Shown here one piece after another: positions 23,684-38,046 of a stretch of 64,000 nt of DNA. A model generated the notes under the pieces. The model made no database searches and was not told the DNA's origin. It worked only from the letters and a program-made list of their open reading frames with translations. The position numbers and the translations under genes are program-made. How positions within the stretch are numbered: the stretch's first letter is position 1; each line of letters opens with the position of its first letter. Origin of the DNA: an uncultured delta proteobacterium (GTDB lineage Bacteria > Desulfobacterota > RBG-13-43-22); contig CAVVCH010000061.1 of assembly GCA_963746605.1 (NCBI GenBank), positions 134,441-198,440 on the forward strand, given 5' to 3'.

Positions 23684-23696
23684 GTAGGAGGTGGCT

Positions 23697-24443
23697 ATGT
23701 CTGGGCACTCTAAGTGGAGTACGATTAAACGGAAAAAAGGCGCCGCCGATGCCAAGCGGGGAAAGGTATTTTCCAAACTGATCAAGGAAATTACCGTGTC
23801 GGCTCGCATGGGGGGTGGAGACCAGAGTGGGAATCCTCGCCTGCGGGCAGCCATTCTGGCCGCCAAGGCGGAAAACATGCCCAAGGATAATATCGACCGG
23901 GCCATAAAGAAAGGCACCGGAGATTTGGAGGGGGCGGCTTACGAAGAAACCGTCTATGAGGGCTATGGGCCGGGTGGGGTGGCGATTTTGGTTCAAGTAT
24001 TGACCGACAATAAAAATCGTACGGTTTCCGATGTGAGACATATTTTTACTAAAAACGGGGGCAATATGGGCGAGGCCGGCTCCGTGGCCTGGCTTTTCGA
24101 TAAGAAGGGCTTCGTGGTCTTCGACAAGGGAAAGGTGGATGAAGAGGCCTTAATGGAATGGGCCCTGGAGGCCGGAGTGGAGGATGTGCGGGAACAGGAA
24201 AACGAGTGGGAAGTGATCACGTCGCCGGAAATTTTTGAACAGGTGCGCACGGCTATGGAAGAAAAAAAGTGGATCCCGCAAGTTGCCGAAGTAACCATGC
24301 TGCCCAAGAATACCATTACCCTGGAGGCCAAACAGGCGGAGCAGATGCTGCGCATGATGGAGGCCCTGGAAGATCACGAAGATGTTCAAAATGTGTACGC
24401 CAATTTTGATATCCCCGATCAGGTCATGGAGGCCCTAGGCTGA
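23697..24443 (+). CDS. yebC: YebC/PmpR-family transcriptional regulatory protein
   Basis: [32 protein letters not shown] is the invariant YebC N-terminus. Confidence 0.9.
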
Positions 24444-24446
24444 TTC

Positions 24447-24938
24447 ATGGGCGTTCGGCAACCGGGGCGGACCTTGGGGATCGACCCGGGATCACAAGTC
24501 ACCGGGGTGGGGATTCTGGAAAGAGACGGATCTCGGTTTCGGCATATTTACAGCGACGCCATCCGCCTTACGCCCTTGCCGACCCTGGTCCTGCGGTTGG
24601 AAAAAATACATCACCGGCTGAAGGAAATTATCGGGGAATTCCGACCCACCGAGATGGCGGTGGAAAAAGTATTCTTATCCAAAAACGTGCATAGCGCCCT
24701 GATCCTCGGGCATGTCCGCGGGGTGGCCCTGCTTTCAGCCGTGGAAGCGGGACTGGAACTTTTTGAATATAGCGCCCTGGAGATCAAGAAGGCGGTCACC
24801 GGCTATGGCCGGGCGGAAAAAACGCAAGTCCACTCCATGGTCGGAAATTTATTGGGACTGACGCTTCCTCGAAACCGGGACATCTCCGATGCCCTGGCCG
24901 TGGCCATCTGCCATCTGAATTGGTTCCGACCCCTCTGA
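24447..24938 (+). CDS. ruvC: Holliday junction resolvase RuvC
   Basis: LGIDPGSQVTGVGI...EMAVEKVFLSKNVHSALILGHVRG...DALAVAICH carry the catalytic Asp/Glu/His residues. Confidence 0.85.
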   Translation: MGVRQPGRTLGIDPGSQVTGVGILERDGSRFRHIYSDAIRLTPLPTLVLRLEKIHHRLKEIIGEFRPTEMAVEKVFLSKNVHSALILGHVRGVALLSAVEAGLELFEYSALEIKKAVTGYGRAEKTQVHSMVGNLLGLTLPRNRDISDALAVAICHLNWFRPL

Positions 24939-24954
24939 CACCGGAGCCTATCGA

Positions 24955-25554
24955 ATGATTGCCTTTCTGACCGGCCAATTGCGGTTCAAATCCCCTGAAT
25001 ACAGCATCATCGATGTGCAGGGCGTCGGCTATCAAGTGGTCTTGCCGTTATCTTCTTTTTATGAATTGCCCCCTTTGAAAGAAGAAATTCAGTTGCACAT
25101 CTATACCCACGTTCGGGAAGATGCGCTTAGCCTGTTCGGCTTTTTGACTCTTTTGGAAAAAAAGCTATTTCTATTGCTTCTGGAAGTGACCGGGGTCGGC
25201 GCCAAAGTGGCCTTGAATATCCTCTCCGGCATTTCGGCGCCGGAGCTTTATCAGGCCTTGGCGACGGCCGACAGCCAACGGGTCCAGCGTGTTCCCGGCG
25301 TGGGCAAAAAAACGTCCGAACGGATCATCCTGGAGCTGAAGGACCGGGTCAAAAAGATTGAAATAGCGGCCCCACCGCCGCCCGAGAAGGGAACGTGGGA
25401 CCGGACTTGGGAAGATGCCCTTTCGGCCTTGCTCAACCTGGGCTATGGTCGTCCCCTGGCCGAAAAGGCCCTCGAATCCATCCGCCGGGATTCGGACCCT
25501 GGAATGACCCTGGAAGAACTGCTGCGCCGAAGTTTACGGTCTTTGTCGCAATGA
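24955..25554 (+). CDS. ruvA: Holliday junction DNA helicase subunit RuvA
   Basis: MIAFLTGQL...[10 protein letters not shown] and a helix-hairpin-helix region ([18 protein letters not shown]). Confidence 0.85.
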
Positions 25555-26606
25555 CGACTCCTCGCCTGCTGGATCTCGAGAACCTGGAAGGGGAAATGCA
25601 GCTCGAAGTCGGGTTGCGGCCCCGGAGCCTGGACGAGTTTATCGGGCAGAGCACGGTAAAAGAAAATCTGCGGATTTTCATCGAAGCCGCCAAGGCCCGC
25701 TCCGAGGCGCTGGATCACGTCTTGGTCCACGGTTTTCCGGGGTTGGGCAAGACAACCTTGGCCTATATTATTTCCCAGGAATTGCAGGTCAACCTGAAGA
25801 CCACCTCCGGTCCGGTTATCGAGCGGCCGGGCGACCTGGCGGCCCTGCTGACCAATCTGCAACCCAAGGAAGTCTTATTTATCGACGAAATCCATCGGCT
25901 CAACCACGTGGTCGAAGAGATTTTGTATCCGGCCATGGAAGATTTTCAATTGGATCTCCTGATCGGGCAAGGACCCAGCGCCCGGTCCGTCAAACTGGAC
26001 CTGCCCAAGTTCACCCTGGTGGGGGCCACCACCAGGGCCGGTCTGTTGACCCCGCCGCTGCGCGATCGTTTTGGGGTCATCCTGCGGGTGGATTTTTATT
26101 CGCCGGAAGAATTGCGGATTATCCTGACCCGCTCGGCGGCCATCATGAAGATCGCCGCGGACGACGAAGGGCTGTTGGAGATCGCCCGACGCTCCCGAGG
26201 GACGCCGCGGGTGGCGAATCGCTTGCTGCGGCGGGTCCGGGATTTTGCCCAGGTCAGGGCGGACGGCCGCATCTCGCTGCCCGTGGCCCAGGAGGCCCTG
26301 CAGATGCTGGAAGTGGATCGTTTGGGGCTGGACCGAATGGATCGGAAGATTTTGTTGACCATCATGGAGAAATTCAGCGGCGGTCCGGTGGGGGTAGACG
26401 CCCTTTCCGTGGGCCTGTCTGAAGAAAGGGATACCTTGGAGGACGTGTACGAACCCTTCCTCATTCAACTGGGTTTTTTGAACCGGACCCCCCGAGGCCG
26501 CATGGCCACCCCTTTAGCCTATAGACATTTTGGGAAAAAGGCGCCCGCGGAGATTCAGGGACTTCTGTTTGAGCCCGAGGAGGAAGAGCGTTCCGTGACG
26601 TTCTAG
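25551..26606 (+). CDS. ruvB: Holliday junction DNA helicase RuvB
   Basis: AAA+ Walker [12 protein letters not shown] and Walker [10 protein letters not shown], plus the conserved RuvB C-terminus. Start MTTPRLL overlaps the ruvA stop. Confidence 0.9.
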
Positions 26607-26644
26607 AAAACGGCAGAAACGATGACGGTACAGGGAGAAGGCTT

Positions 26645-27442
26645 ATGCGTTCGCTGGCGGTGTTCAGTTTAAAAGGAGGGACCGGAAAGACTACCTTAAG
26701 CAGTTCCCTAGGCTGGATTTTAGCCGAAGAGGGGCTCCGGGTGCTGTTGGTCGATCTGGACCCTCAGGGACATCTGACGCATTATCTAAAAGCCGGGCCC
26801 GCTAAAAACCAGCCGACCCTTTTTCAGGCGTTGATTCATGACCAACCGCTCAGCGGGGCCGTGGTCTCCACGGAGCATCCGGGGTTGCACCTGCTGCCGG
26901 CCAGTGAAGAAAACCTGTATTTAAACGAGGCCCTGTTTTCCAGACCCTGGAAGGAATGGAAATTAAAGGATGCCCTGGAAGCCGCTCAGCCCTTTCCTTA
27001 TGATTTGGTCCTGATGGACGTGGGGGGCAATTTGAACCTGATTACCTACAATGCCCTGATGGCGGCCAACGCCCTGGTGATCCCCGTGTTGCCCGACCTG
27101 TTTTCCTACCTGAGTCTGAAGACCCTGTTTGCCTTCCTGAAAAAAACCGGTGACCAGTACCAGGTTGCTTTTCAAATGATCTGGGTCCTGATCAATAAAA
27201 TCAACAACCACCGTCCCCTGGACCGGGAAAACCGGGACGCTTTACAGAAATATTACGGCAAGTTTTTAATGCCCGAAATGGTTCGAGAGGACCCTAAATT
27301 GGTTCAGGCCCTGCGCCTTCAGGAGCCGATTACCCGATACGCCCCCGAGTCCATTGCGGCCCGGGACTTAAAGAAGGTGGCGCGATTCATTCAAAAAGCC
27401 TTTCTGGGCGTCGGTTCGCAACAAGACAATGAGACGGATTGA
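26645..27442 (+). CDS. ParA/MinD-family P-loop ATPase (orphan; no ParB seen)
   Basis: Deviant Walker A KGGTGKTT and a ParA-like length of 265 aa. Confidence 0.75.
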   Translation: MRSLAVFSLKGGTGKTTLSSSLGWILAEEGLRVLLVDLDPQGHLTHYLKAGPAKNQPTLFQALIHDQPLSGAVVSTEHPGLHLLPASEENLYLNEALFSRPWKEWKLKDALEAAQPFPYDLVLMDVGGNLNLITYNALMAANALVIPVLPDLFSYLSLKTLFAFLKKTGDQYQVAFQMIWVLINKINNHRPLDRENRDALQKYYGKFLMPEMVREDPKLVQALRLQEPITRYAPESIAARDLKKVARFIQKAFLGVGSQQDNETD

Positions 27443-27515
27443 GCCTAAAGGACTTTATTCCGGATTCCAATTCCAGAATTCCAACCCTACACTATCTTGA
27501 TAAGGAGGACCTTTC

Positions 27516-27810
27516 ATGGACGATGTGTATAAAAACAATGCCCCCCGGGAATTCCCAACCCTCAAGCCCAACCGGAAATCAAGGAGAAAAAAGCCGTCAG
27601 GCTGGAGACGATGAAAGTCTCCGAGCTTAAGGAAACAGTGTCCCGCTGGAAGAAGGATATCCTGGACCGTATTCAGTTTCTGAAGGAGAATTATGACCAG
27701 GCTCTACAGGACAAGGGAGCGTTGACTTGGAGGTGGATAAGTGGAAGGCCGAACTGACCGCTTCGGAATTCCGGGTCCAGGAACTGGAAAGACAATCGTG
27801 GCCGAGGTGA
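27516..27810 (+). pseudogene. decayed coiled-coil ORF readable only across three frames (…EIKEKKAVRLETMKVSELKETVSRWKKDILDRIQFLKENYDQALQDKGALT / LEVDKWKAELTASEFRVQELERQSWPR)
   Basis: A protein-like heptad sequence is split by at least two frameshifts. No intact ORF longer than 50 aa. Confidence 0.3.
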
Positions 27811-27939
27811 TGGAAGACCTATAAAGTAATTTACTCAAGGGAGGTAACGCCGGCGCCTTGCTTCAAGGAAGTAGTACCGGCGCTTTGCAGAGATTACGAT
27901 TGCAGGCGGCGTTCCAGAATGGGGTGCAGGATTATCGAT

Positions 27940-28040
27940 TCTTACACCCTCCGTCCAGCGCCGAATTCGGTGATGTCAGGGACGACCACGTCGCTGTGCA
28001 GGGAGCGGCTAATCCGCTATGGTTGGTCTTGGTCGATTCC
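27940..28040 (-). pseudogene. acyl-CoA dehydrogenase gene fragment (~35 codons), paralogous to the N-terminal region of the ACAD at 29219..30361, with an internal frameshift
   Basis: ~80% nucleotide identity to 30061-30130. Encodes ...TKTNHSGLAAP then, in another frame, LHSDVVVPDITEFG, against ACAD TKTNHSGLAAPLHSDVVVPYLTEFG. Confidence 0.5.
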
Positions 28041-28554
28041 GGTGGATGGAAAGCCAGGGGTAAGGGGAGGTTGAAAATGGAATGTTTATCCTGATACTTA
28101 AGGTGGTTCGTCTGGCAATATAAGCCCCCATCAATATTATTGTGGTGCCGACGGCTGAGCCAACCAGGCCATTGGACCGCGATGGTGCGCACATGGGCCT
28201 TGGCCCGGCACGCTCGGGCCATGGTCAACCGATTGACGTCTCGTCCAAAGACAGAGGAGGTGCGGATGATTACCGTATTACAGGATACTGCAAAGCCAAA
28301 CTCGGACGAAGGCAGATCTATGAGCACCGCGAAGAAGACGAGGTACAGGATTGGCTCGGAAGACGCGGCTTCAAGACGGGACCAGTAGATTGGCACTGGA
28401 AGATACAGCTGAATGGATTCAAGAGTTCAGCGATCTATGGAACCGAGAATCAGGGGCTAGGTCCTGAAAGAGGAGCGCAATGGCAACAAGCCAATCCGGC
28501 CGACTCCGACCAATATTGATGATTTTCTCGTTGGATTTCAGAAAGAATGAACCG

Positions 28555-28897
28555 ATGAAGATTATCTCAAACCGTGCCGCCATCATCGTCAGGGCGAAAG
28601 CTCCTTTTGTTGAGTGGGTTCAAAGCGCCGATGCCGACAGCTCCCATATCACTACCGAGGAAGTCAACGAAGACCCTAACGTATACTTGATCTACGATCC
28701 AAAGAAGGAAGGCGAGATCGACATCGATTGATCGCGAAGAACTATCGTGAGATTTTCGAAGAGGAATTGAATAGCTGGTTCACAGACGAGTCCTGTGGCC
28801 AGAAGAGGGACCTTAAAACATTCCGGCAATGGTTTCAGGTTGATTTCCATGGCATGGTGGTAGATCTCAGCGAAGAAGACTTCTACACCGAAGAATG
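28555..28897 (+). pseudogene. hypothetical ~113-aa ORF interrupted by a frameshift/stop near 28728-28735 (MKIISNRAAIIVRAKAPFVEW...GEIDID | IAKNYREIFEEELNSWFTDESCGQ...)
   Basis: Two consecutive protein-like segments in different frames. No family recognised. Confidence 0.3.
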
Positions 28898-28930
28898 AAA
28901 AAATCGAGCCGCTTGACTACCTTCGCCATA

Positions 28931-29213
28931 TCAAGGTGGAGGTAGAGTCGGCGCCCTGCCTTGACTACCTAAAAATTTTCCTGTGTCTTTAAAAAAGTCG
29001 CTGATATAGGAGATTTTTCCCTCCTCGAACTCCATCAGGGTCACCCCCTCATTCTCGTAGGGTTCCCCGCGTCGGTTTTTCCCTCGATTGCTCCAATGGA
29101 CCGCTCCCCGGTTCCCCTGAACAATGGTCCGGTGAACGGTGAAGACCAACTCCGGGTATTGGCGGAAGAGGATCTGGAGTGAAAAAGTCAGAAATGAGTT
29201 TTTCGGCATTCAC
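28931..29213 (-). pseudogene. SnoaL-like/NTF2-fold protein remnant whose N-terminal segment (GTG start, NAEKLISDFFTPD) is in a different frame from the body; short and likely disrupted
   Basis: C-terminal ...GEPYENEGVTLMEFEEGKISYISDFFKDTG matches the SnoaL-like C-terminus. A frame change near 29170. Starts 5 nt after the ACAD stop. Confidence 0.35.
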
Positions 29214-29218
29214 AGCGG

Positions 29219-30361
29219 CTACAATCCCATCATCTTGGCCACGATGGTCTTCATGATCTCGTTGGTGCCGGCAAAGATGGACATGACCCGCACGTCCCGC
29301 CAGGCGCGGGCAATGGGGTATTCCTCGCAGTAGCCGTAACCGCCGTGGAGCTGGAGGCATTCGTCGGCTACGCGTCGGGCCATTTCGGTGGTCCAATATT
29401 TGGCCATGGAGACCTCGGTGACCACATTTTTTCCCTCCAGATGGTCGGCGATCAGTTTGTCCAGGAAGGTGCGCCCCAGCTTGACCTCGGTGGCCATCTC
29501 CACGATCTTGAACTGGTTGACCTGAAACTTGGAGATCGGTCTGCCGAAGGCGGTGCGTTCCTTCGTATACTTGATGGTTAAATCCAACATATGTTCCGCC
29601 CCGGCGACGGCGGCGATGGCGCACATCAGCCGTTCCTGCTGGAGCTTCTGCATCAGCATGATAAAGCCGGTCCCCTTAAGGCCCAATCGATTGCCTTTGG
29701 GGATGCGACAGTCGGTGAAATAGAGCTCGGCCGTATCCTGGCTGTGCCAGCCGATTTTTTTTATTTTTTTGCCTTTTTCAAAACCGGGGGTCCCGGCCTC
29801 CACCAGGAAGAGGTCGATGGCCTGGTAGGGTTCGCTGACCTCGGGGTCCCGGGCGGCCAGAACCAGCAGGTCGCAGTTGATTCCGTTGCTGATAAAGGTT
29901 TTCTGGCCGTTGAGGATCAATTCGTCCCCCGCTTCCACCGCCGTGGTCCGGATGGCCGCCAGATCGCTTCCCGTGTTGGGCTCGGTCATGGCGATGGCGG
30001 TGATGAGGTCCCCGGAACAGCAGCCGGGCAGGTATTTCCTTTTCATTTCTTCCGTGCCGAATTCGGTAAGGTAAGGGACGACCACATCACTGTGCAAGGG
30101 GGCGGCCAAGCCACTGTGGTTGGTCTTGGTCAATTCCTCACAGACGATCACGGAATAGAGAAAGTCGGCCCCGGACCCGCCGTATTCCTCCGGGACCATG
30201 GGGCAGAGAAAACCCTGGTCGCCCATCTTCTTCCAGGCGCTTCGGGGGACGATCCCCGCTTCTTCCCATTCGTCAATATAGGGAATCACCTCTTTTTCAA
30301 AAAACTTCCGTAAGGCGTCGCGAAAGATGCGGTGTTCTTCGGTATAGTGTAAAATGTCCAT
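29219..30361 (-). CDS. acyl-CoA dehydrogenase
   Basis: 380 aa with ...TEPNTGSDLAAIRTTA..., ...ISNG... and a C-terminal ...HGGYGYCEEYPIARAWRDVRVMSIFAGTNEIM (catalytic Glu in the YGY..E context). Confidence 0.85.
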   Translation of the reverse strand: MDILHYTEEHRIFRDALRKFFEKEVIPYIDEWEEAGIVPRSAWKKMGDQGFLCPMVPEEYGGSGADFLYSVIVCEELTKTNHSGLAAPLHSDVVVPYLTEFGTEEMKRKYLPGCCSGDLITAIAMTEPNTGSDLAAIRTTAVEAGDELILNGQKTFISNGINCDLLVLAARDPEVSEPYQAIDLFLVEAGTPGFEKGKKIKKIGWHSQDTAELYFTDCRIPKGNRLGLKGTGFIMLMQKLQQERLMCAIAAVAGAEHMLDLTIKYTKERTAFGRPISKFQVNQFKIVEMATEVKLGRTFLDKLIADHLEGKNVVTEVSMAKYWTTEMARRVADECLQLHGGYGYCEEYPIARAWRDVRVMSIFAGTNEIMKTIVAKMMGL

Positions 30362-32078: not shown

Positions 32079-32089
32079 ACAGCTCTCCT

Positions 32090-33430
32090 TTAGAATTTAA
32101 ACAGCTTTTCTATCAGTTGGGATTTCATCAGATCCCCTTCGATTTTCAGTTTTCCGCTAGTGAAGGCCTGCATGGCCGGCAATTGACCGGTGATCAGCCC
32201 CAGAAAGTCGGCATCGGCCATGTGGATGGTGGTGGTCGGCTTTGCATGAAGCCCCGGGCCTACGGTGCAGGAGGCCTCTTTGATCACCGCCTGCCAATCC
32301 CCGCCCTCGGGCCCGGAGATCCGGAACTGGAAGACCACGTCCACCCCGGCCGCTTTTTCGGCCTGAAAGGCCTCCGGCATCCGCTCGAACACGGACCGAA
32401 CCGTAGGTCCGGAGGGTGAGGATTTGGCCGCCTCCGGCTCCCTTTGCCCGCCGGTCAGCATTTCTCCCAGGGCCGCGGTGGCATTGTAAAATTCCTTTCC
32501 TCCTACGAGGGTGTTGATGGCCGTCCAATTTTGGTGAACCTCTTCCGGGGTAGGGACATTCCCTCCTTCACCGATCAGGATTCCCGGCCCGGAAACGATC
32601 GCCGCCTTGTTGAAATACCCCGCCCCGGCGTTGAAGACCTGGCCGGTCTCGGCGCAGGCGGCGGAGCAGAGATAGATGACCAAGGGGGCCGACGAATTCG
32701 GGTTTAAGTCTTTCAAAGAGATCGGGGGGCAGGATGTCTTCGGTCAGGCGAGTGGCGGCGATAGGGGCCACGGTGTTGACCTTGATGTTGTATTTCTCGC
32801 CCTCCAGTTTCAAGGTGTTCATCAAGCCCACCAACCCCAGTTTGGCTGCCGAATAGTTGGCCTGTCCGAAATTGCCGAACAAACCGGCGGCCGAGGTGGT
32901 CAGGACGATTCGGCCGTATTGCTGTTCCCGCATCTGCCGGAGCGCCGGCCGGGTGACATAATAGGCCCCATCCAGATGGACGGAGAGGACCTGATTCCAA
33001 TCCTCGGAGTCCATCTTGAGCAGGGTCTTGTCCCGGAGGATTCCGGCGTTGTTGATCAGGATATCCACGCGGCCAAAGGTCTCCAGGGCTTTCTCGACAA
33101 TGGCTTCGCCGCCTGCGGGAGTGGATACGGAATCGTAACTGACCACGGCTTCGCCGCCCAGGGCCTTGATTTCTTCAACCACCCTGTCAGCCGGACCGGT
33201 AGAACCAGTGCCGGAACCGTCCCGGGAGCCGCCCAGATCGTTCACCACCACTTTCGCTCCGCGCTTGGCCAAGTCCAGGGCATAGGTCCGACCCAGACCG
33301 GCCCCGGCCCCGGTGACGATCGCCACCTGACCGTCAAATCGGATTTCGGCCTTTTTTTCCTCTGTTGTCGGCGGCTTGACCGGCAGAGGCACGGCTTTCC
33401 AGAAGTAGCCGGAGAACCCGCGGTCCTTAT
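32090..33430 (-). repeat. paralogous SDR+SCP2 module; partner at ~34926..36210 in the adjacent gene (~85-90% amino-acid identity)
   Basis: Near-identical stretches, e.g. RVDILINNAGILRDKTLLKM...GRIVLTTSAAGLFGNFGQANYSAAKLGLVGLMNTLKLEGEKYNIKVN.VAPIAATRLTEDILPPDLF.RLKPE, occur in both proteins. Confidence 0.6.
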
Positions 33431-34826
33431 CGGTGTACCGCTTCCGGAAAGAGAGCCTGACCGGCTGGCCGACCCAGACTTCGGCCAGTTCGCAATCGGT
33501 AAAATCGGCCATGAACCGCCCCCCGTCATCAAATTGGATCATGCCGTAGACTGCCGGCGGGTCGACAGAAACCGTCAACAGGTCTCCGGTAAAGGTCTTG
33601 ATAAAGGCCGATTTTTCGGCAAACTCGTACTCTTCCTGGGTATGGAATTTCCGGCAGTCCGGGTTGACGCAGATATCCATTTTTGGAAACTGAGGGGTGC
33701 CGCAGGCCGTACAGCGGCCGCCCACCAGGCCGAGGATCATCTGCCGTTTCCGATAGAGGACGGTCATGGCCGTCTGCGTGGGGGCCTCGGCCCTGATCCC
33801 CATCTCGGTCTGGATCAGGTCTCGGAACTTGAGGAATTTGGGATATTGGTCGATCGTCTTTTTGTTCTTCAGAGACCCTTCAATCCCCACCCGAGGGGCT
33901 AGATTTAGGATATGCTCGGTCACCCGGAAATACAGCGCGTCGCAGCCCTGTCCGAAACCGGCCAGCAGGATCCGATCTCCAGGCTTGGCCTGCTCCAGGG
34001 CTTGGGTAAACAGGACCAGGGGATGGGCGGCGCCGGTTTCCCCGCAGACCTCGTGGAGGTTGTCCTGAACTTTTTCCGGAGCAGCCCCCAGTTTCTTGGC
34101 GATGTTGCGGTGTTCGGCCTTGAAGAAGCAGGGGAAAACAAGCTTATCCACGTCGTCCATGGTGATGGACAGTTTTTCAGGAGACCGTTTACCGCCGCGG
34201 GGATGATCTTGGCCATATCCTTCATCCCGGACCCAGCGCTCTTCCCACATGTAATCGTATTTGTTTTGGGAGCCGCGGTAGTGATCGATAAAATCCAGAG
34301 AGAGGCTATAAGAACCCAGGAATTCAGCAATTACGCTGCTATTGCCGACCAGGAGTGAGGCGGCCCCGTCGCCGAACCACATCTCATAAAAATAGGCGGC
34401 CTTGGTCTCCCGCTTGTCGGCCGCGGTGACCAGGATGCTTTGGGGGACGCCTTCCCGAAGGGAGTTCAAGGCGGTGATCAGCGCGCTGGTGCCGGAACGA
34501 AGGGAGGCGGTAACGTCCTGGGTCAGCAGGTCATCCCGAAGGTTCAGGGCCGTTTTGACAATAGCGGCGTTGAGGCGGTCGGCAAAGGGCAGCGTGGTGG
34601 AGCACAGGTAGAGGGCCTCCATCGCCGATTTATCCGCTCCCTTCAGGCAGTCCTGCGAGGCGGCAACGGCCATGGTCAGGCTGTCTTCATCCCAGTTGCA
34701 GAAAGAACGCTCACCCTGGGCGACCATGACGATGGCCGGGGCAAACCAGCCCATTTCCTGAAAGATGCTCATGCGGTTTAGACGGAGCCGGGGAAGGTAG
34801 CCGCCGTAGGATACGATGCCGATCAT
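32090..34826 (-). pseudogene. four-domain fusion (HMG-CoA-synthase-like + DUF35 + short-chain dehydrogenase + SCP2 sterol-carrier), interrupted by a +1 frameshift at the G5 run 32683-32687 (ORFs 32568..34826 and 32090..32716)
   Basis: N-terminal MIGIVSYGGYLPRLRL is the HMGCS start. CTACGT...NPDCRKF...VWVGQPVRLSFRK is DUF35. TGAGAGLG...YSAAK is SDR. The C-terminus continues in the other frame as PLVIYLCSAACAETG...GKLKIEGDLMKSQLIEKLFKF (SCP2). Deleting one G restores EFVGPLVIYLC, matching the paralog RLKPEYVTPLVLYLC. Confidence 0.75.
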
Positions 34827-34925
34827 GGGACCTCCTTAAAATTCAAATCCGAAATTCGACGCACGAAACTCGAAACAAAAAACAATATTCAAAATTCAAA
34901 TGACCGAAACAACTTCACCTCCCGA

Positions 34926-37032
34926 TCAGAACTTAAAAAGTTTTTCTATGAGCTGGGATTTCATCAGGTCGCCTTCAATTTTCAGTTTGCCCGAGGTGTA
35001 GGCCTGCATGGCCGGCAGTTTTCCGGCCATCAAATCCAGGAAATCTTCGATCCGACATTTTAATGAGGGTCGTCGGTTTTTCGTGGAGCCCCGGGGTGGT
35101 AGTACAGGTCGCGTCTTTGATGGCGGTAAACCAATCTCCCCCGCCCGCTCCGGAAATCCGGAATTGAAAAACCACGTCCACCCCGGCGGCCTTGTCGGCC
35201 TGAAAGGCCCGGGGCATCTCATCAAAAACCGACCGAACGGTGGCCCCGGGGGCCTCGACCGGCGCCGCCTCGGTTGGGGAGGGGGGGCCGGTCAATAGGA
35301 CGCCCAAGGCCTCGGTGGCATTGTAAAATTCCCGGGCCCCGGTCATCCGGAGAATGTCCGGCAGGCGGGCGGAAAGGCTCTCGGGAGAAGGGATCTGGTG
35401 CCCGTCGCTGAGCATTACCCCGGGACCGGAAAGTACGGCGGCCCGATTGAAAAAACCCATCCCGGCATTATAGACCGCGCCGCTCACCGGGCATTGTTCG
35501 GCGCAGAGGTAGAGGACCAGCGGGGTTACGTATTCGGGTTTGAGCCGGGCGAAAAGATCGGGGGGCAGGATGTCCTCGGTCAGACGGGTGGCGGCGATGG
35601 GGGCCACGGCGTTGACCTTGATGTTGTATTTTTCGCCCTCCAGTTTCAACGTGTTCATCAAGCCCACTAACCCCAGCTTGGCCGCCGAATAGTTGGCCTG
35701 CCCGAAATTGCCGAACAGACCGGCCGCCGAGGTGGTCAGGACAATTCTTCCGTACCCCTGTTCCCTCATCCTTTGGAAGGCTGCCCGGGTTACGTAGAAG
35801 GCCCCGTCCAGATGAACGGCCCGGACCTGTTCCCAATCCGCTTTCTCCATTTTAAGCAGGGTCTTGTCGCGCAGGATGCCGGCATTATTGATCAGGATAT
35901 CCACGCGGCCAAAGGCTTCGACGGCCCGCCGGGTGATGGCTTCCCCGCCTTCCGGGGTCGATACGGAATCGTAGCTGGCCACGGCCTCACCGCCCAGGGC
36001 CATAATTTCCGCAACCACCCGGTCCGCCGGACCGGCCGATCCGGTCCCGGATCCATCCCGAGCGCCGCCCAGGTCATTGACCACCACCCGTGCGCCTCGC
36101 CGGGCCAGTTCCAGGGCGTAGGCCCGGCCTAACCCGGCCCCGGCGCCGGTGACGATGGCCACCCGGCCGTCCAGGCGAATCTCCATCTTTGGGGTCTCCC
36201 CATATTCGAAGATTCCCTGGTCAATGACCACCTCGCCTGTCTCGGCGTTGATGACCCGCCAGAGGGCCTTCCCTTCGTCCACCCGCCAGATCTGGGTTTT
36301 GATGGCGTTCCCGGGATAAAGCGGGCTGCGGAAACGATTGGCCATCCGTCGTACCTTCTCCGGGGCGCCCGGGACCAGTTGCCGGATCAAGGCCCGGGAA
36401 GCATAGCCGTGGGTGCAAAGGCCGTGCATGATGGGTCGGGTAAAACCGGCCGTCTTGGCAAATTCCAAATCCACGTGCAGGGGGAAGATGTCCCCGGAAA
36501 GACGGTAAATCAGCGGCTGATCGACCGGGGGGGTAGCCGGCACCTCAAAATCCGGAGGTCGTTCCGGGAACGAAATGGCATTCTTAGGGGCATCTTCCCC
36601 GCCAAAGCCCCCGTCCAAACGTGCCAAGACGGTAACGATGCTGGTGAAAAGTTTTCGGCCGCCTTCATTCCGGGTGTCAAACTCGGCCACGATCAGCGCT
36701 CCCTTGTCGGGGCCTTTGTCGTAATAATGGGTGATGGCCCCCTCGGTTATCAGTTTTCCCTCCGAAGGGATGGGCTGGTGAAAGATCAACTCCTGCCCGG
36801 CGTGAAGAATTCCCGCCAGGTTGACATTGCTGATGGAGGCCAACTCCGGCATGAAATCGTACAGCGTCACAATGCCAAAGCTCGGCAAGACCCTGAGGTC
36901 CTTTTCGTAACAGTAGTCTAGATCGGAAAAACCCGCACCCACGCCCAGGGCATAGAGGACCGTGTCCTTCCAGGTATAGTCCTTGGAAAAGGGGCCGATC
37001 TTTTTTCCAATGCTGTCCAAGTTAAGGGCCAT
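34926..37032 (-). pseudogene. MFE-2-like fusion (2x MaoC hot-dog hydratase + SDR + SCP2), C-terminal SCP2 end displaced by a 1-nt insertion near 35058 (ORFs 34975..37032 and 34926..35225)
   Basis: N-terminal YTWKDTVLYALGVGA is the hydratase-2 N-domain, then TGAGAGLG...YSAAK (SDR). The tail ...TLIKMSD then shifts to EDFLDLMAGKLPAMQAYTSGKLKIEGDLMKSQLIEKLFKF, identical in sequence to the paralog's C-terminus. Confidence 0.75.
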
Positions 37033-37077
37033 CTTTTTTCCTCCCGGTTCAAATTGTGCTGTTGGGTATCGCGCTGG

Positions 37078-37725
37078 TTAGGGGCTGTCGGCCCGGTTTT
37101 CTCCCCCTCTGTCGAAGGCCGGGATCAAGATATATTTCAAGGTCTCTTTGGCCAGCGCCATGTATTCCGGACGTTCGATCTTAAGGAGCGACCGAAAAAA
37201 GGTTTCCCCGGAAATAAAATTATGAATGGCATTCATGATGACCAGGACCTGCATTTTAACGGAAACGGAGACGCTTTCCTTGTCCCGGCTGAGACCCATG
37301 GAGCGGGCGATATCGGAAATGAATTCCGGAACCCTGAAATCCAGGCTGGTTTCAGGGCGGGTCTTTCCGAAATATCGAAAAAGGACCAGGTTGGATATTT
37401 CCGGGTGTTGGAAGAGAAAGGCCACAATCCGGTCGATGGAAATGTCCATTCTCTGGGCCAGGGGCCGCCCGTGGATTATTTTTTCCACGGCCACCAGTTG
37501 CTGGCGCAAGTCCTCGTTGATATCCAGGACCACGGCCTCGTAGAGGTCCCCTTTTTCGCCCCAATGGTAATACAGCGTGGAAATGTCAATACCCACCCGT
37601 TGGGCGATCATGCGGGTGGTCGTTCCATGATAGCCGTATTCACCAAAAAGCTGCCGGGCTATCTTGAGGATCCGGGCCTTCATGGATTCCGGATCCCGCC
37701 GGGCTTTTTCCAAAGGGGTGCTCAC
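37078..37725 (-). CDS. TetR/AcrR-family transcriptional regulator
   Basis: N-terminal HTH ARILKIARQLFGEYGYHGTTTRMIAQRVGIDISTLYYHW. It is the first gene of the minus-strand cluster. Confidence 0.8.
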   Translation of the reverse strand: MSTPLEKARRDPESMKARILKIARQLFGEYGYHGTTTRMIAQRVGIDISTLYYHWGEKGDLYEAVVLDINEDLRQQLVAVEKIIHGRPLAQRMDISIDRIVAFLFQHPEISNLVLFRYFGKTRPETSLDFRVPEFISDIARSMGLSRDKESVSVSVKMQVLVIMNAIHNFISGETFFRSLLKIERPEYMALAKETLKYILIPAFDRGGENRADSP

Positions 37726-38046
37726 AACCGGTCTCCAAAAAATGTTTCCATCAAATGATGGAGAAACCCTAGCATGATGGGGGACAAAGTCAAGAGAAAA
37801 TTTTGTGGAAAGTGCATTTCCAAAGAATTGCGCAGCAACTACTCAAAAAATCCACGAATACCGAATTCGCAAACCGGGGAGGGTGTTCGACCCGAGGCAG
37901 GCTGACCGGGTTTTTAGTAACGAAATCGTAAAGGTGAATAGGTAACCCGGCGGAAAGGTCCCCTGACTCGAAAGGCCCACGGCCGGCTACCCCATGTTGG
38001 CCTCAGTCTTGCTGATCAACCGGTCAGGTGAACGGGTATGGTTCTC

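Follow-up and report, generated by a model that had tools for sequence, protein, structure and literature searches.

The window (the whole stretch of 64,000 nucleotides that was analysed) contains a 1.8-kb interval at 27443–29218, between a ParA-like gene and an acyl-CoA dehydrogenase (ACAD) gene, in which no ORF matches any full-length homologue. It lies between a plus-strand unit, yebC-ruvCAB-parA-cc115, and a minus-strand ACAD/thiolase cluster, and its GC content of 0.47–0.55 is only slightly lower than that of its flanks (0.55–0.60). The ORF list and Pfam scans agree with a preliminary description of this DNA in finding no supported intact ORF here, and all five elements which that description listed are present where it placed them (Table 1). 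Pfam and NCBIfam scans of every fragment ORF, and of every merged reconstruction, returned real matches only to SnoaL_2 and to the flanking ParA and ACAD genes.

Table 1 Features of the interval and its borders, in window coordinates.
Feature	Position	Strand	Basis
ParA/MinD-family ATPase, intact, chromosomal (context)	26645–27442	+	Pfam AAA_31/CbiA/BcsQ matches
cc115 pseudogene (conserved 115-aa coiled-coil protein)	27516–27897	+	84–88% nt identity to intact L001, L002 and L012 genes
25-nt patch inside cc115, carrying a +2 frameshift	27789–27813	+	22/25 complementary to ACAD 3′ end, 29227–29251
Left direct repeat (cc115 3′-end sequence)	27840–27861	+	Repeat search (repeat family D1); blastn end points
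Second tandem copy of cc115 3′ end (27-nt period)	27867–27888	+	D1, 77%
Decayed spacer, homologous to sequence 3′ of cc115 in L094	27898–27959		blastn, 27905–27983 = L094 7430–7500, 76%
ACAD fragment, 81 nt, codons 75–102	27960–28040	−	85% identical to window ACAD 30056–30137
Decayed sequence	28041–28231		28147–28229 resembles L094 7581–7671 (blastn, 78%)
Small-ORF remnant, 63–103-aa family (C-terminal part of AbiEii-like nucleotidyltransferases)	28232–28385	+	tblastn to L006 ORF, 47% over 30 aa
44-aa ORF remnant, intact in L006	28386–28520	+	Broken by TAG at 28458–28460 and indels
Pseudogene, 114-aa accessory protein family	28555–28898	+	20 full-length homologues, 107–115 aa
SnoaL-like (NTF2-fold) pseudogene: 92-aa residual ORF (28931–29209) and out-of-frame N-terminal remnant	28931–29218	−	SnoaL_2 match
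Right direct repeat	28938–28959	+	18/22 identical to 27840–27861
Acyl-CoA dehydrogenase, intact (context)	29219–30361	−	380-aa ORF, ACAD family matches; 59 members in 90% cluster

Damage to the genes on either side

In the related loci L001, L002 and L012–L016 the ParA-like gene is directly followed by an intact gene, cc115, for a 115-aa coiled-coil protein that falls in no Pfam or NCBIfam family. Homologues of cc115 form about 20 clusters that are intact at 113–116 aa, with a highly conserved stretch of 21 C-terminal residues, and dN/dS among relatives is 0.04–0.18. The gene is normally kept. The window copy has a disrupted frame. Single nucleotides are missing at 27557 (AAA to AA) and 27727 (TTT to TT), and the 3′ end holds insertions of two nucleotides at 27797, one at 27816 and two at 27825, with stops at 27808 and 27822, so that the last ~21 codons, those of the conserved C-terminus, are scrambled. 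The preliminary description had called this gene broken at least twice. Codons 1–94 display no relaxation of selection (dN/dS 0.07–0.14, five private substitutions) and resemble those of intact relatives in this respect. Because these codons are under purifying selection, the two single-nucleotide deletions must be either very recent or errors of the consensus.

Part of the damage at the 3′ end is concentrated in a 25-nt patch that is probably a templated (quasipalindrome) mutation. The patch resembles, in inverted orientation, the 3′ end of the resident ACAD gene, which is its sole match in the window with three or fewer mismatches; none of 100 shuffles gave such a match. The complementarity score of the patch to the ACAD 3′ end of the same genome is 19 in the window vs 6–8 in relatives, and all of the window-specific changes, the 2-nt insertion included, run toward the ACAD sequence. 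Such a cluster of changes, raising complementarity to a nearby inverted partner, is the pattern expected of a template switch. A search with 11-mers for other templates for 27780–28560 found matches at chance level only. Template-switch mutations associated with quasipalindromes have been studied in E. coli (PMC7202029, PMC6357072). As in those cases, clustered substitutions and a 2-nt insertion have made a weak inverted repeat almost perfect; its arms here are the 3′ region of cc115 and the 3′ end of ACAD. In contrast to the E. coli work, the event in this genome is read from comparative sequence alone. The two arms now lie 1.4 kb apart, and we estimate an ancestral spacing of roughly 85 bp or more.

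On the other side of the interval, the residual SnoaL-like ORF matches the C-terminal half of SnoaL_2 proteins (PF12680) with 41.9 bits against a gathering threshold of 27, covering positions 46–101 of 102 and hence not a complete domain, whereas the 118-aa copy in L001 covers profile positions 3–100. Compared with L001, L016, L051 and L006, ~113 bp have been deleted at 29179/29180. A remnant of the N-terminus, GTG-NAEKLISDFF (29180–29213), persists in another frame, with ~6 nt between it and the stop of ACAD at 29219, and this deletion accounts for the out-of-frame N-terminus abutting the ACAD stop that had been described earlier. Since ~45 N-terminal profile positions are deleted, unlike in other SnoaL_2 proteins, a complete fold cannot form. 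At its other end, where it meets the block, the original stop codon has been replaced, which lengthens the ORF by 14 codons. The SnoaL-like gene is dispensable in this clade, as four relatives are without it and one has only a stub.

A strain-specific 1.1-kb block

Sequence from 27862 to 28973 forms a 1.1-kb block that is missing at nine related loci sharing its flanks (among them L001, L002, L012–L016 and L051). The ParA-like gene and cc115 face the ACAD gene directly in L002, L012, L013 and L015; an intact SnoaL-like gene lies between cc115 and ACAD in L001, L016 and L051, and L014 has a SnoaL stub only. Relatives of type 1 and type 2 are homologous up to 27861 and no further. The block is confirmed as real by independent assemblies, its left end by L094, which is contig_44552 of ERZ25039554, and its right end by L006. 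L094 shares the junction of cc115 3′ end, spacer and a shorter version of the ACAD fragment; beyond it lies an island of at least 5 kb. L006 covers 28495–29179 at 98–99% identity, with an intact 114-aa gene and a SnoaL-like gene undeleted at the breakpoint. Identity to relatives is mosaic along the interval.

The block is flanked by imperfect direct repeats of 22 nt. The right repeat, also found in L006, is the only sequence in the window to match the left one at 18 or more of 22 positions, where 0.005 such matches per window would be expected by chance. A further copy at 27867–27888 is the one most like the true cc115 3′ end of relatives (local score 24.5 against a chance maximum of 14.5), and the L094 alignment opens a gap of ~30 nt there; this 27-nt tandem duplication is weak at 77% and received no TRF call. 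At the borders, where the preliminary description had proposed a check for a tRNA or att-like repeats, there are these direct repeats and no tRNA, the nearest in a tRNA scan lying at 42.4 kb.

The contents of the block are fragmentary. The ACAD piece, described earlier as ~100 bp, ~80% identical and frameshifted, has sharp ends and loses its frame at 28001, where 1 nt is deleted. It is 88–89% identical to the ACAD genes of L001, L014 and L016 and retains ancestral states at positions where the resident ACAD has changed. By tblastn no ACAD sequence was found beyond these 27 codons (75–102), so that the full set of N-terminal, middle and C-terminal ACAD domains is not present. No protein-level match was found for 28041–28231 (tblastx, Pfam). 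The following small-ORF remnant belongs to a family linked to PF08843 (AbiEii) by protein P0091, and has just ~50–58% nucleotide identity to L006. A possible SnoaL 3′ stub to the left of the ACAD fragment was dropped, the match being too weak and ambiguous. Searches for further paralogous debris (tblastn of all window ORFs against the interval, tblastx of 28031–28560 against all loci) added nothing to the 81-nt ACAD piece and the matches to L006.

The 114-aa gene is a pseudogene by comparison both with its intact homologues and with a near-identical copy, P0001 of L006, which is intact and 98–99% identical at the nucleotide level. An insertion of AT at 28723–28724 shifts the frame into a TGA at 28729–28731, which explains the ~113-aa ORF cut by a stop in the preliminary description, and paired deletions of one and two nucleotides at ~28792/28801 remove the near-invariant W81 and P82. 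The family is accessory: elsewhere it occurs in variable contexts, beside an integrase, an IS481 transposase or a serine recombinase, and across loci the gene has no consistent upstream partner.

Genomic-island remnants and pseudogene clusters are found where conserved core genes border a chromosomal integration hotspot. The present site resembles them in being strain-variable, with conserved core-gene borders, short direct repeats and cargo that is being deleted, and in content that differs between close relatives, from nothing to a SnoaL-like gene, the 1.1-kb block, or the large island of L094. Unlike them, the block contains no integrase, transposase or tRNA, holds a piece of a neighbouring host gene, and did not spare the conserved gene that it entered, whose 3′ end it cut. 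ORF inspection and Pfam scans of the interval found no integrase, transposase or other mobility gene, and searches for mobile elements, including PADLOC on the L094 island and on the family proteins, gave nothing or only weak CHAT/AbiEii matches. Two marks of a genomic island, absence from relatives and flanking repeats, are present, and a mobility gene and a tRNA, phage or plasmid association are not.

We consider it likely, with a probability of about three in four, that the interval is non-functional DNA between two convergent conserved units: an insertion scar of an ordinary kind, at a site that varies between strains, in which a 1.1-kb insertion with short flanking repeats is decaying and both neighbouring genes are damaged. 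The earlier suggestion of a scar left by an old insertion, deletion or rearrangement is supported by the absence of the block from nine loci, the direct repeats, the block ends in L094 and L006, and the ~113-bp SnoaL deletion.

Sequencing error, mobile origin and residual function

The reading that best survives beside an insertion scar accepts the architecture as real and attributes the small frameshifts (−1 at 27557, −1 at 27727, +2 at 28723 and +1 at 32690) to errors in the consensus or its polishing, made where a metagenome assembly crosses a strain-variable spot, with the 114-aa gene and at least the first 94 codons of cc115 in frame in the organism. Two of these indels shorten short homopolymers (AAA and TTT), and codons 1–94 of cc115 remain under purifying selection. 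The small indels are seen in one assembly, and the broken ORFs are singletons in a collection of 15 billion proteins, present on the source contig only. That contig may come from a long-read metagenome bin, like L001 and L002, which are Nanopore-derived; both of these, as well as L094, have isolated frameshifts of their own, and the +1 at 32690 splits a gene of 911–912 aa in most relatives.

However, the lesions are unevenly placed. At least four frame-breaking small indels lie inside the 1.8-kb interval vs a single one, at 32690, elsewhere in the window; ~20 kb of the flanks were compared with relatives, and the remaining window is tiled by long intact ORFs. Because 32690 is the only other such indel in the compared flanks, lesions are far denser in the interval than in the background, and errors falling uniformly at about 1 per 60 kb could not produce such a cluster. 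An artefact would be marked by indels that are evenly spread over the contig and restricted to homopolymers. Here one indel lies in the ~62 kb outside the interval and at least four lie inside it; the AT insertion is not a homopolymer error, nor are the 113-bp deletion and the duplication. Even with all small indels repaired, cc115 would still be without its conserved C-terminus and stop at 27808 or 27822, the 114-aa gene would still be without W81 and P82, the SnoaL-like gene would be without 38 codons, and the ACAD piece and AbiEii-like remnant would remain fragments. The large lesions cannot be sequencing errors, and the single-base frameshifts might be. Alignment with relatives, which the preliminary description had named as capable of pointing to sequencing errors, does find intact versions of the genes; their sequence is not the same, so that this objection to a scar is only half triggered. 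On balance we regard error as an improbable account of the small frameshifts.

Far less probable still, and largely refuted, is the view that the segment derives from a plasmid or phage, is now degraded, and has the flanking ParA as its partition gene. A ParA-family ATPase does adjoin the tract, and the 114-aa family sometimes occurs near recombinases. The gene is not an orphan parA, as had been supposed: it is syntenic after ruvB in L001–L004, L012–L016 and L094, and the ParA-cc115 pair lies directly downstream of yebC-ruvC-ruvA-ruvB in every relative, including those whose ParA is as little as 69% identical and those without the insertion. Its scores fall under every NCBIfam curated cut-off (ParA_partition, 77 bits vs 180; BcsQ, 116 vs 158), and it has no ParB-type partner to complete a ParA-ParB-parS plasmid partition module. 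The block has no BLAST match among 72,556 plasmids and 50,697 phages, scanning IMG/VR with an alignment of the 114-aa family found no match, and no ParB-like gene, replication gene or integrase is present.

The least credible reading, that the interval yields short functional products (the 92-aa SnoaL remnant or ORFs of 48 and 56 aa) or a regulatory RNA, can draw on the fortuitous ATG and still open frame of the SnoaL remnant and on the frame-keeping paired deletions in the 114-aa gene, but it is contradicted by the loss of the first 45 SnoaL profile positions, by short ORFs with no homologue of their own length, by the lack of any Rfam match in the interval even at E = 1, and by promoter- and terminator-like sites no commoner than in shuffles.

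Proposed history and the ParA-cc115 pair

Returning to an insertion scar, we infer the following order of events. In the starting state, parA-cc115 would have faced the ACAD gene, with or without the small SnoaL-like gene in the gap. Accessory DNA of about 1.1 kb would then have entered the extreme 3′ end of cc115, duplicating ~22–27 nt and destroying the conserved C-terminus. Its cargo would have comprised host-derived debris (the ACAD piece), AbiEii-like small-ORF remnants and the 114-aa gene. With no mobility gene left, the block appears to be undergoing erasure by small indels, stops and deletions. One cluster of changes at the cc115 3′ end may have been copied from the inverted ACAD 3′ end by a template switch. 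Later, cc115 gained, or appears to have gained, two 1-nt deletions, and the SnoaL-like gene probably lost its ~113 bp. How the block integrated is guesswork, as it has neither an integrase or transposase nor a tRNA target.

The locus is a documented case of a small hotspot of strain variation lying between core genes that converge, and comparison of the 25-nt patch with relatives gives a clean example of a multi-base mutation that was apparently templated. For annotation hygiene, the four ORF-like stretches here should be labelled as pseudogenes or remnants and not as hypothetical proteins, and the ParA should not be taken as a plasmid marker.

ParA/MinD-family ATPases are known to pair with small adjacent partner proteins, for example McdA-McdB and ParA-ParG. 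The pair described here is similar in that a gene for a deviant Walker-type ATPase is directly followed by one for a small coiled-coil protein whose N-terminus is of low complexity, and the two are conserved together. It differs in that cc115 has no sequence relation to any named partner and in that the putative partner gene is broken in this genome. We tentatively suggest, with low confidence, that the ParA-like ATPase and cc115 may together act as a positioning system of two genes, as yet undescribed, that is fixed downstream of ruvCAB in a narrow bacterial clade related to sulfate reducers (Desulfobacterota-like); this genome would then be a natural partner knock-out, produced through a strain-variable hotspot and partly by templated mutation from the convergent neighbour. 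The pair, conserved in its clade, may deserve separate study.

Gene setting and the ParA partner gene

The interval is precisely the 1.8 kb that separates the stop codons of ParA and the acyl-CoA dehydrogenase (ACAD), which belong to two convergent units. The plus-strand unit comprises yebC, ruvC, ruvA, ruvB and ParA, a ParA/MinD-family ATPase of 265 aa; on the minus strand, ACAD is accompanied by a thiolase and by large genes that are SDR/SCP2 fusions. Loci with the same flanks were obtained by scanning genomes with the ParA protein and metagenomes with the ACAD protein. In every one returned, ParA is directly followed by an intact coiled-coil gene of 115 aa (cc115), and relatives with more distant ParA proteins (69–74% identity) still carry a cc115 homologue of similar length 3' of ParA. 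In L003, the sole distant relative with its downstream region examined, neighbours further downstream are unrelated. ParA is therefore not plasmid-like, nor is it the orphan named in the preliminary description, and its score falls below every curated partition-family cut-off. The partner, always 3' of the ATPase, is a protein of ~115 aa whose N-terminus is rich in proline and which contains a coiled coil; it is confined to a narrow clade (21 clusters) and matches no Pfam or NCBIfam family. The two proteins may represent an undescribed ATPase-partner pair.

Related loci differ in what follows cc115. ACAD comes directly after it in L002, L012 (9 bp), L013 and L015; an intact SnoaL-like gene (118 aa in L001) intervenes in L001, L016 and L051; L014 has only a SnoaL stub of ~90 bp; and in the contig L094 an accessory island follows that is at least 5 kb long. 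The 1.1-kb block of the window is absent from the first three classes, therefore the junction of the two convergent units is strain-variable and the block is lineage-specific. The L094 island contains a Ymh-family gene, a CHAT protease-like gene and several unknowns, with a ~30-nt ACAD fragment at its left edge. It occupies the same junction, with the ACAD cluster not within reach, and marks this junction as an insertion hotspot.

Coordinates of features in the window (plain) and in related loci
Feature	Coordinates	Remarks
yebC to ParA	23691-27442 (+)	
ParA-cc115 pair	26645-27897; L001 10001-11181; L003 6496-7982; L012 6153-7332	directly 3' of yebC-ruvCAB
Coiled-coil pieces	27516-27900	spread over three frames
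cc115 -1 deletions	27557; 27727	each within a 3-nt homopolymer
cc115 stops	27808; 27822	
Probable template-switch patch	27789-27813	22/25 identical to reverse complement of ACAD 3' end (29227-29251)
22-nt imperfect direct repeats	27840-27861 / 28938-28959	18/22; bracket the block
Third repeat copy	27867-27888	in tandem
Block	27862-28973	
ACAD fragment	27960-28040	81 nt; direct repeat of 30056-30137 (ACAD codons 75-102), one base missing
Remnant of 63-103-aa ORF family	28232-28385	
114-aa gene	28480-28731 + 28728-28898 (+)	two ORFs
+2 (AT) insertion	28723-28724	creates TGA
11-nt exact direct repeat, CTTGACTACCT	28912-28922 / 28960-28970	48 nt apart
SnoaL remnant	28931-29209 (-)	92-aa ORF; SnoaL_2 profile positions 46-101 of 102 only
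ACAD	29219-30361 (-)	
Split large gene	32090-34826 (-)	752-aa + 208-aa ORFs
Adjacent large genes	32089-34873; 34928-37847	
L094 island	L094 7430-12780	ENA ERZ25039554 contig_44552
Frameshifted ACAD	L001 11539-12744	
Frameshifted cc115	L094 7079-7427	

A mosaic, repeat-flanked block

The block is genuine, with a mosaic make-up and repeats at its flanks. The 22-nt pair is the sole such match in the window (chance expectation 0.005). The two copies of the 11-nt repeat lie on either side of the right-hand cc115 3'-end repeat and are also found in L006, a JGI contig of 1,037 bp. L006 matches window 28495-29179 at 98–99% identity, with an intact 114-aa gene and a SnoaL gene that runs on past the window's deletion point; identity falls abruptly to 50–58% left of ~28490. 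At the left end, L094 and the window have in common the order cc115 3' end, spacer, ACAD piece (shorter in L094) and a further 80-nt stretch. The preliminary reading of an old insertion, deletion or rearrangement scar is supported by the block's absence from three classes, its flanking repeats, and the sharing of its ends with L006 and L094.

Six-frame translation and self-comparison of the window recovered all fragments reported earlier (coiled coil, ACAD piece, stop-cut ORF and SnoaL remnant). The ACAD fragment has sharp ends, is slightly closer to relatives' ACADs (88–89%) than to the resident ACAD (85%), and retains ancestral bases at sites where the latter has changed; it is therefore old or from a related strain, not a recent local copy. 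The two plus-strand ORFs join into a 114-aa protein with 20 full-length homologues. The family lies in varied neighbourhoods, beside an integrase, an IS481 transposase, Mrr/SMC-like genes or a serine recombinase, and has no Pfam, NCBIfam or PADLOC family or PDB fold match. In one member of the 63–103-aa ORF family, P0091, the protein runs on into a nucleotidyltransferase domain of AbiEii type. These ORFs (L006 1-181; P0039-P0106) recur widely among bins of Syntrophobacteraceae, Smithella and Desulfobacterium and match only the C-terminal part of the AbiEii-like enzyme; they may represent either repeated truncation or a small protein that exists on its own.

A degraded plasmid or mobile segment, earlier suspected from the flanking ParA, is unsupported: the block has zero matches to plasmids, phages or IMG/VR contigs, and ruvCAB marks ParA as chromosomal. 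Scans of the interval returned neither a tRNA nor, even at E = 1, an Rfam family.

Gene decay and sequencing error

Besides its two single-base deletions, cc115 carries +2, +1, +2, -1 and +4 indels from 27789 on and a probable 27-nt duplication at its 3' end, which together with the stops wipe out the C-terminal 21 residues, among the best conserved of the family. The 114-aa gene has lost near-invariant W81 and P82 through a paired -1/-2 deletion, and the counterpart of a 44-aa ORF of L006 is broken by TAG and indels. The SnoaL-like gene lacks ~113 bp (38 codons), leaving its N-terminal remnant out of frame, and its stop codon is replaced at the block junction.

The match between the cc115 patch and the ACAD 3' end is the only one with at most three mismatches in the window (0 in 100 shuffles); the same segment in relatives resembles their own ACAD 3' ends weakly (score 6–8 versus 19). 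All window-specific changes in the patch, including a frame-shifting 2-nt insertion, go toward the ACAD sequence. Quasipalindrome template-switch mutations in E. coli bear the same signature (PMC7202029, PMC6357072), suggesting that the patch probably arose by template switch.

A pure sequencing-error reading of the frameshifts is doubtful. Some points do favour error for the smallest lesions: frame-corrected cc115 codons 1–94 show dN/dS of 0.07–0.14 and five private substitutions only, as in intact relatives, and the broken ORFs occur nowhere else; moreover, L001 and L002 are Nanopore-derived bins and, like L094, have sporadic frameshifts of their own. However, ~20 kb outside the interval comparable with two relatives holds one uncompensated indel (32690), and long intact ORFs, including rpoB, rpoC, fusA and tuf, tile the rest of the window, so that at least four frame-breaking small indels in 1.8 kb represent a roughly hundred-fold excess. 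Nor are the 113-bp deletion, gene fragments, duplication and AT insertion typical base-calling errors. The scar and large lesions are genuine, while consensus error at a site of strain heterogeneity, or else very recent mutation, accounts for the two -1 deletions in cc115 and perhaps for the +2 in the 114-aa gene. Beyond the frameshifted genes tabulated, related long-read bins show others at ~8100 (L001) and at ~8845 and ~15200 (L002); lone frameshifts in such assemblies are weak pseudogene evidence.

One extra nucleotide in a G/C run (~32690) splits a gene that in most relatives is a single 911–912-aa ORF with thiolase-like/DUF35, SDR and SCP2 domains; its C-terminal part is also much more diverged (67% versus 89% aa identity to L012). 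The two large neighbouring genes are partial paralogues, each having 74–81% nt identity to the other's counterpart in L001 and L002, and look like an old tandem duplication within the fatty-acid/sterol-type degradation cluster.

Proposed history of the junction

We infer the following as the most likely order of events. From parA-cc115 facing (SnoaL-)ACAD, accessory DNA already containing host debris from a related strain would have recombined into the cc115 3' end, duplicating 22–27 nt and removing the conserved C-terminus. The larger island was presumably kept in L094 and trimmed in the window's lineage, with the right half of the block recently common to the L006 lineage; small indels and the 113-bp deletion would have accumulated afterwards. 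Well documented as it is, this insertion scar and pseudogene tract at a strain-variable junction is an ordinary one.
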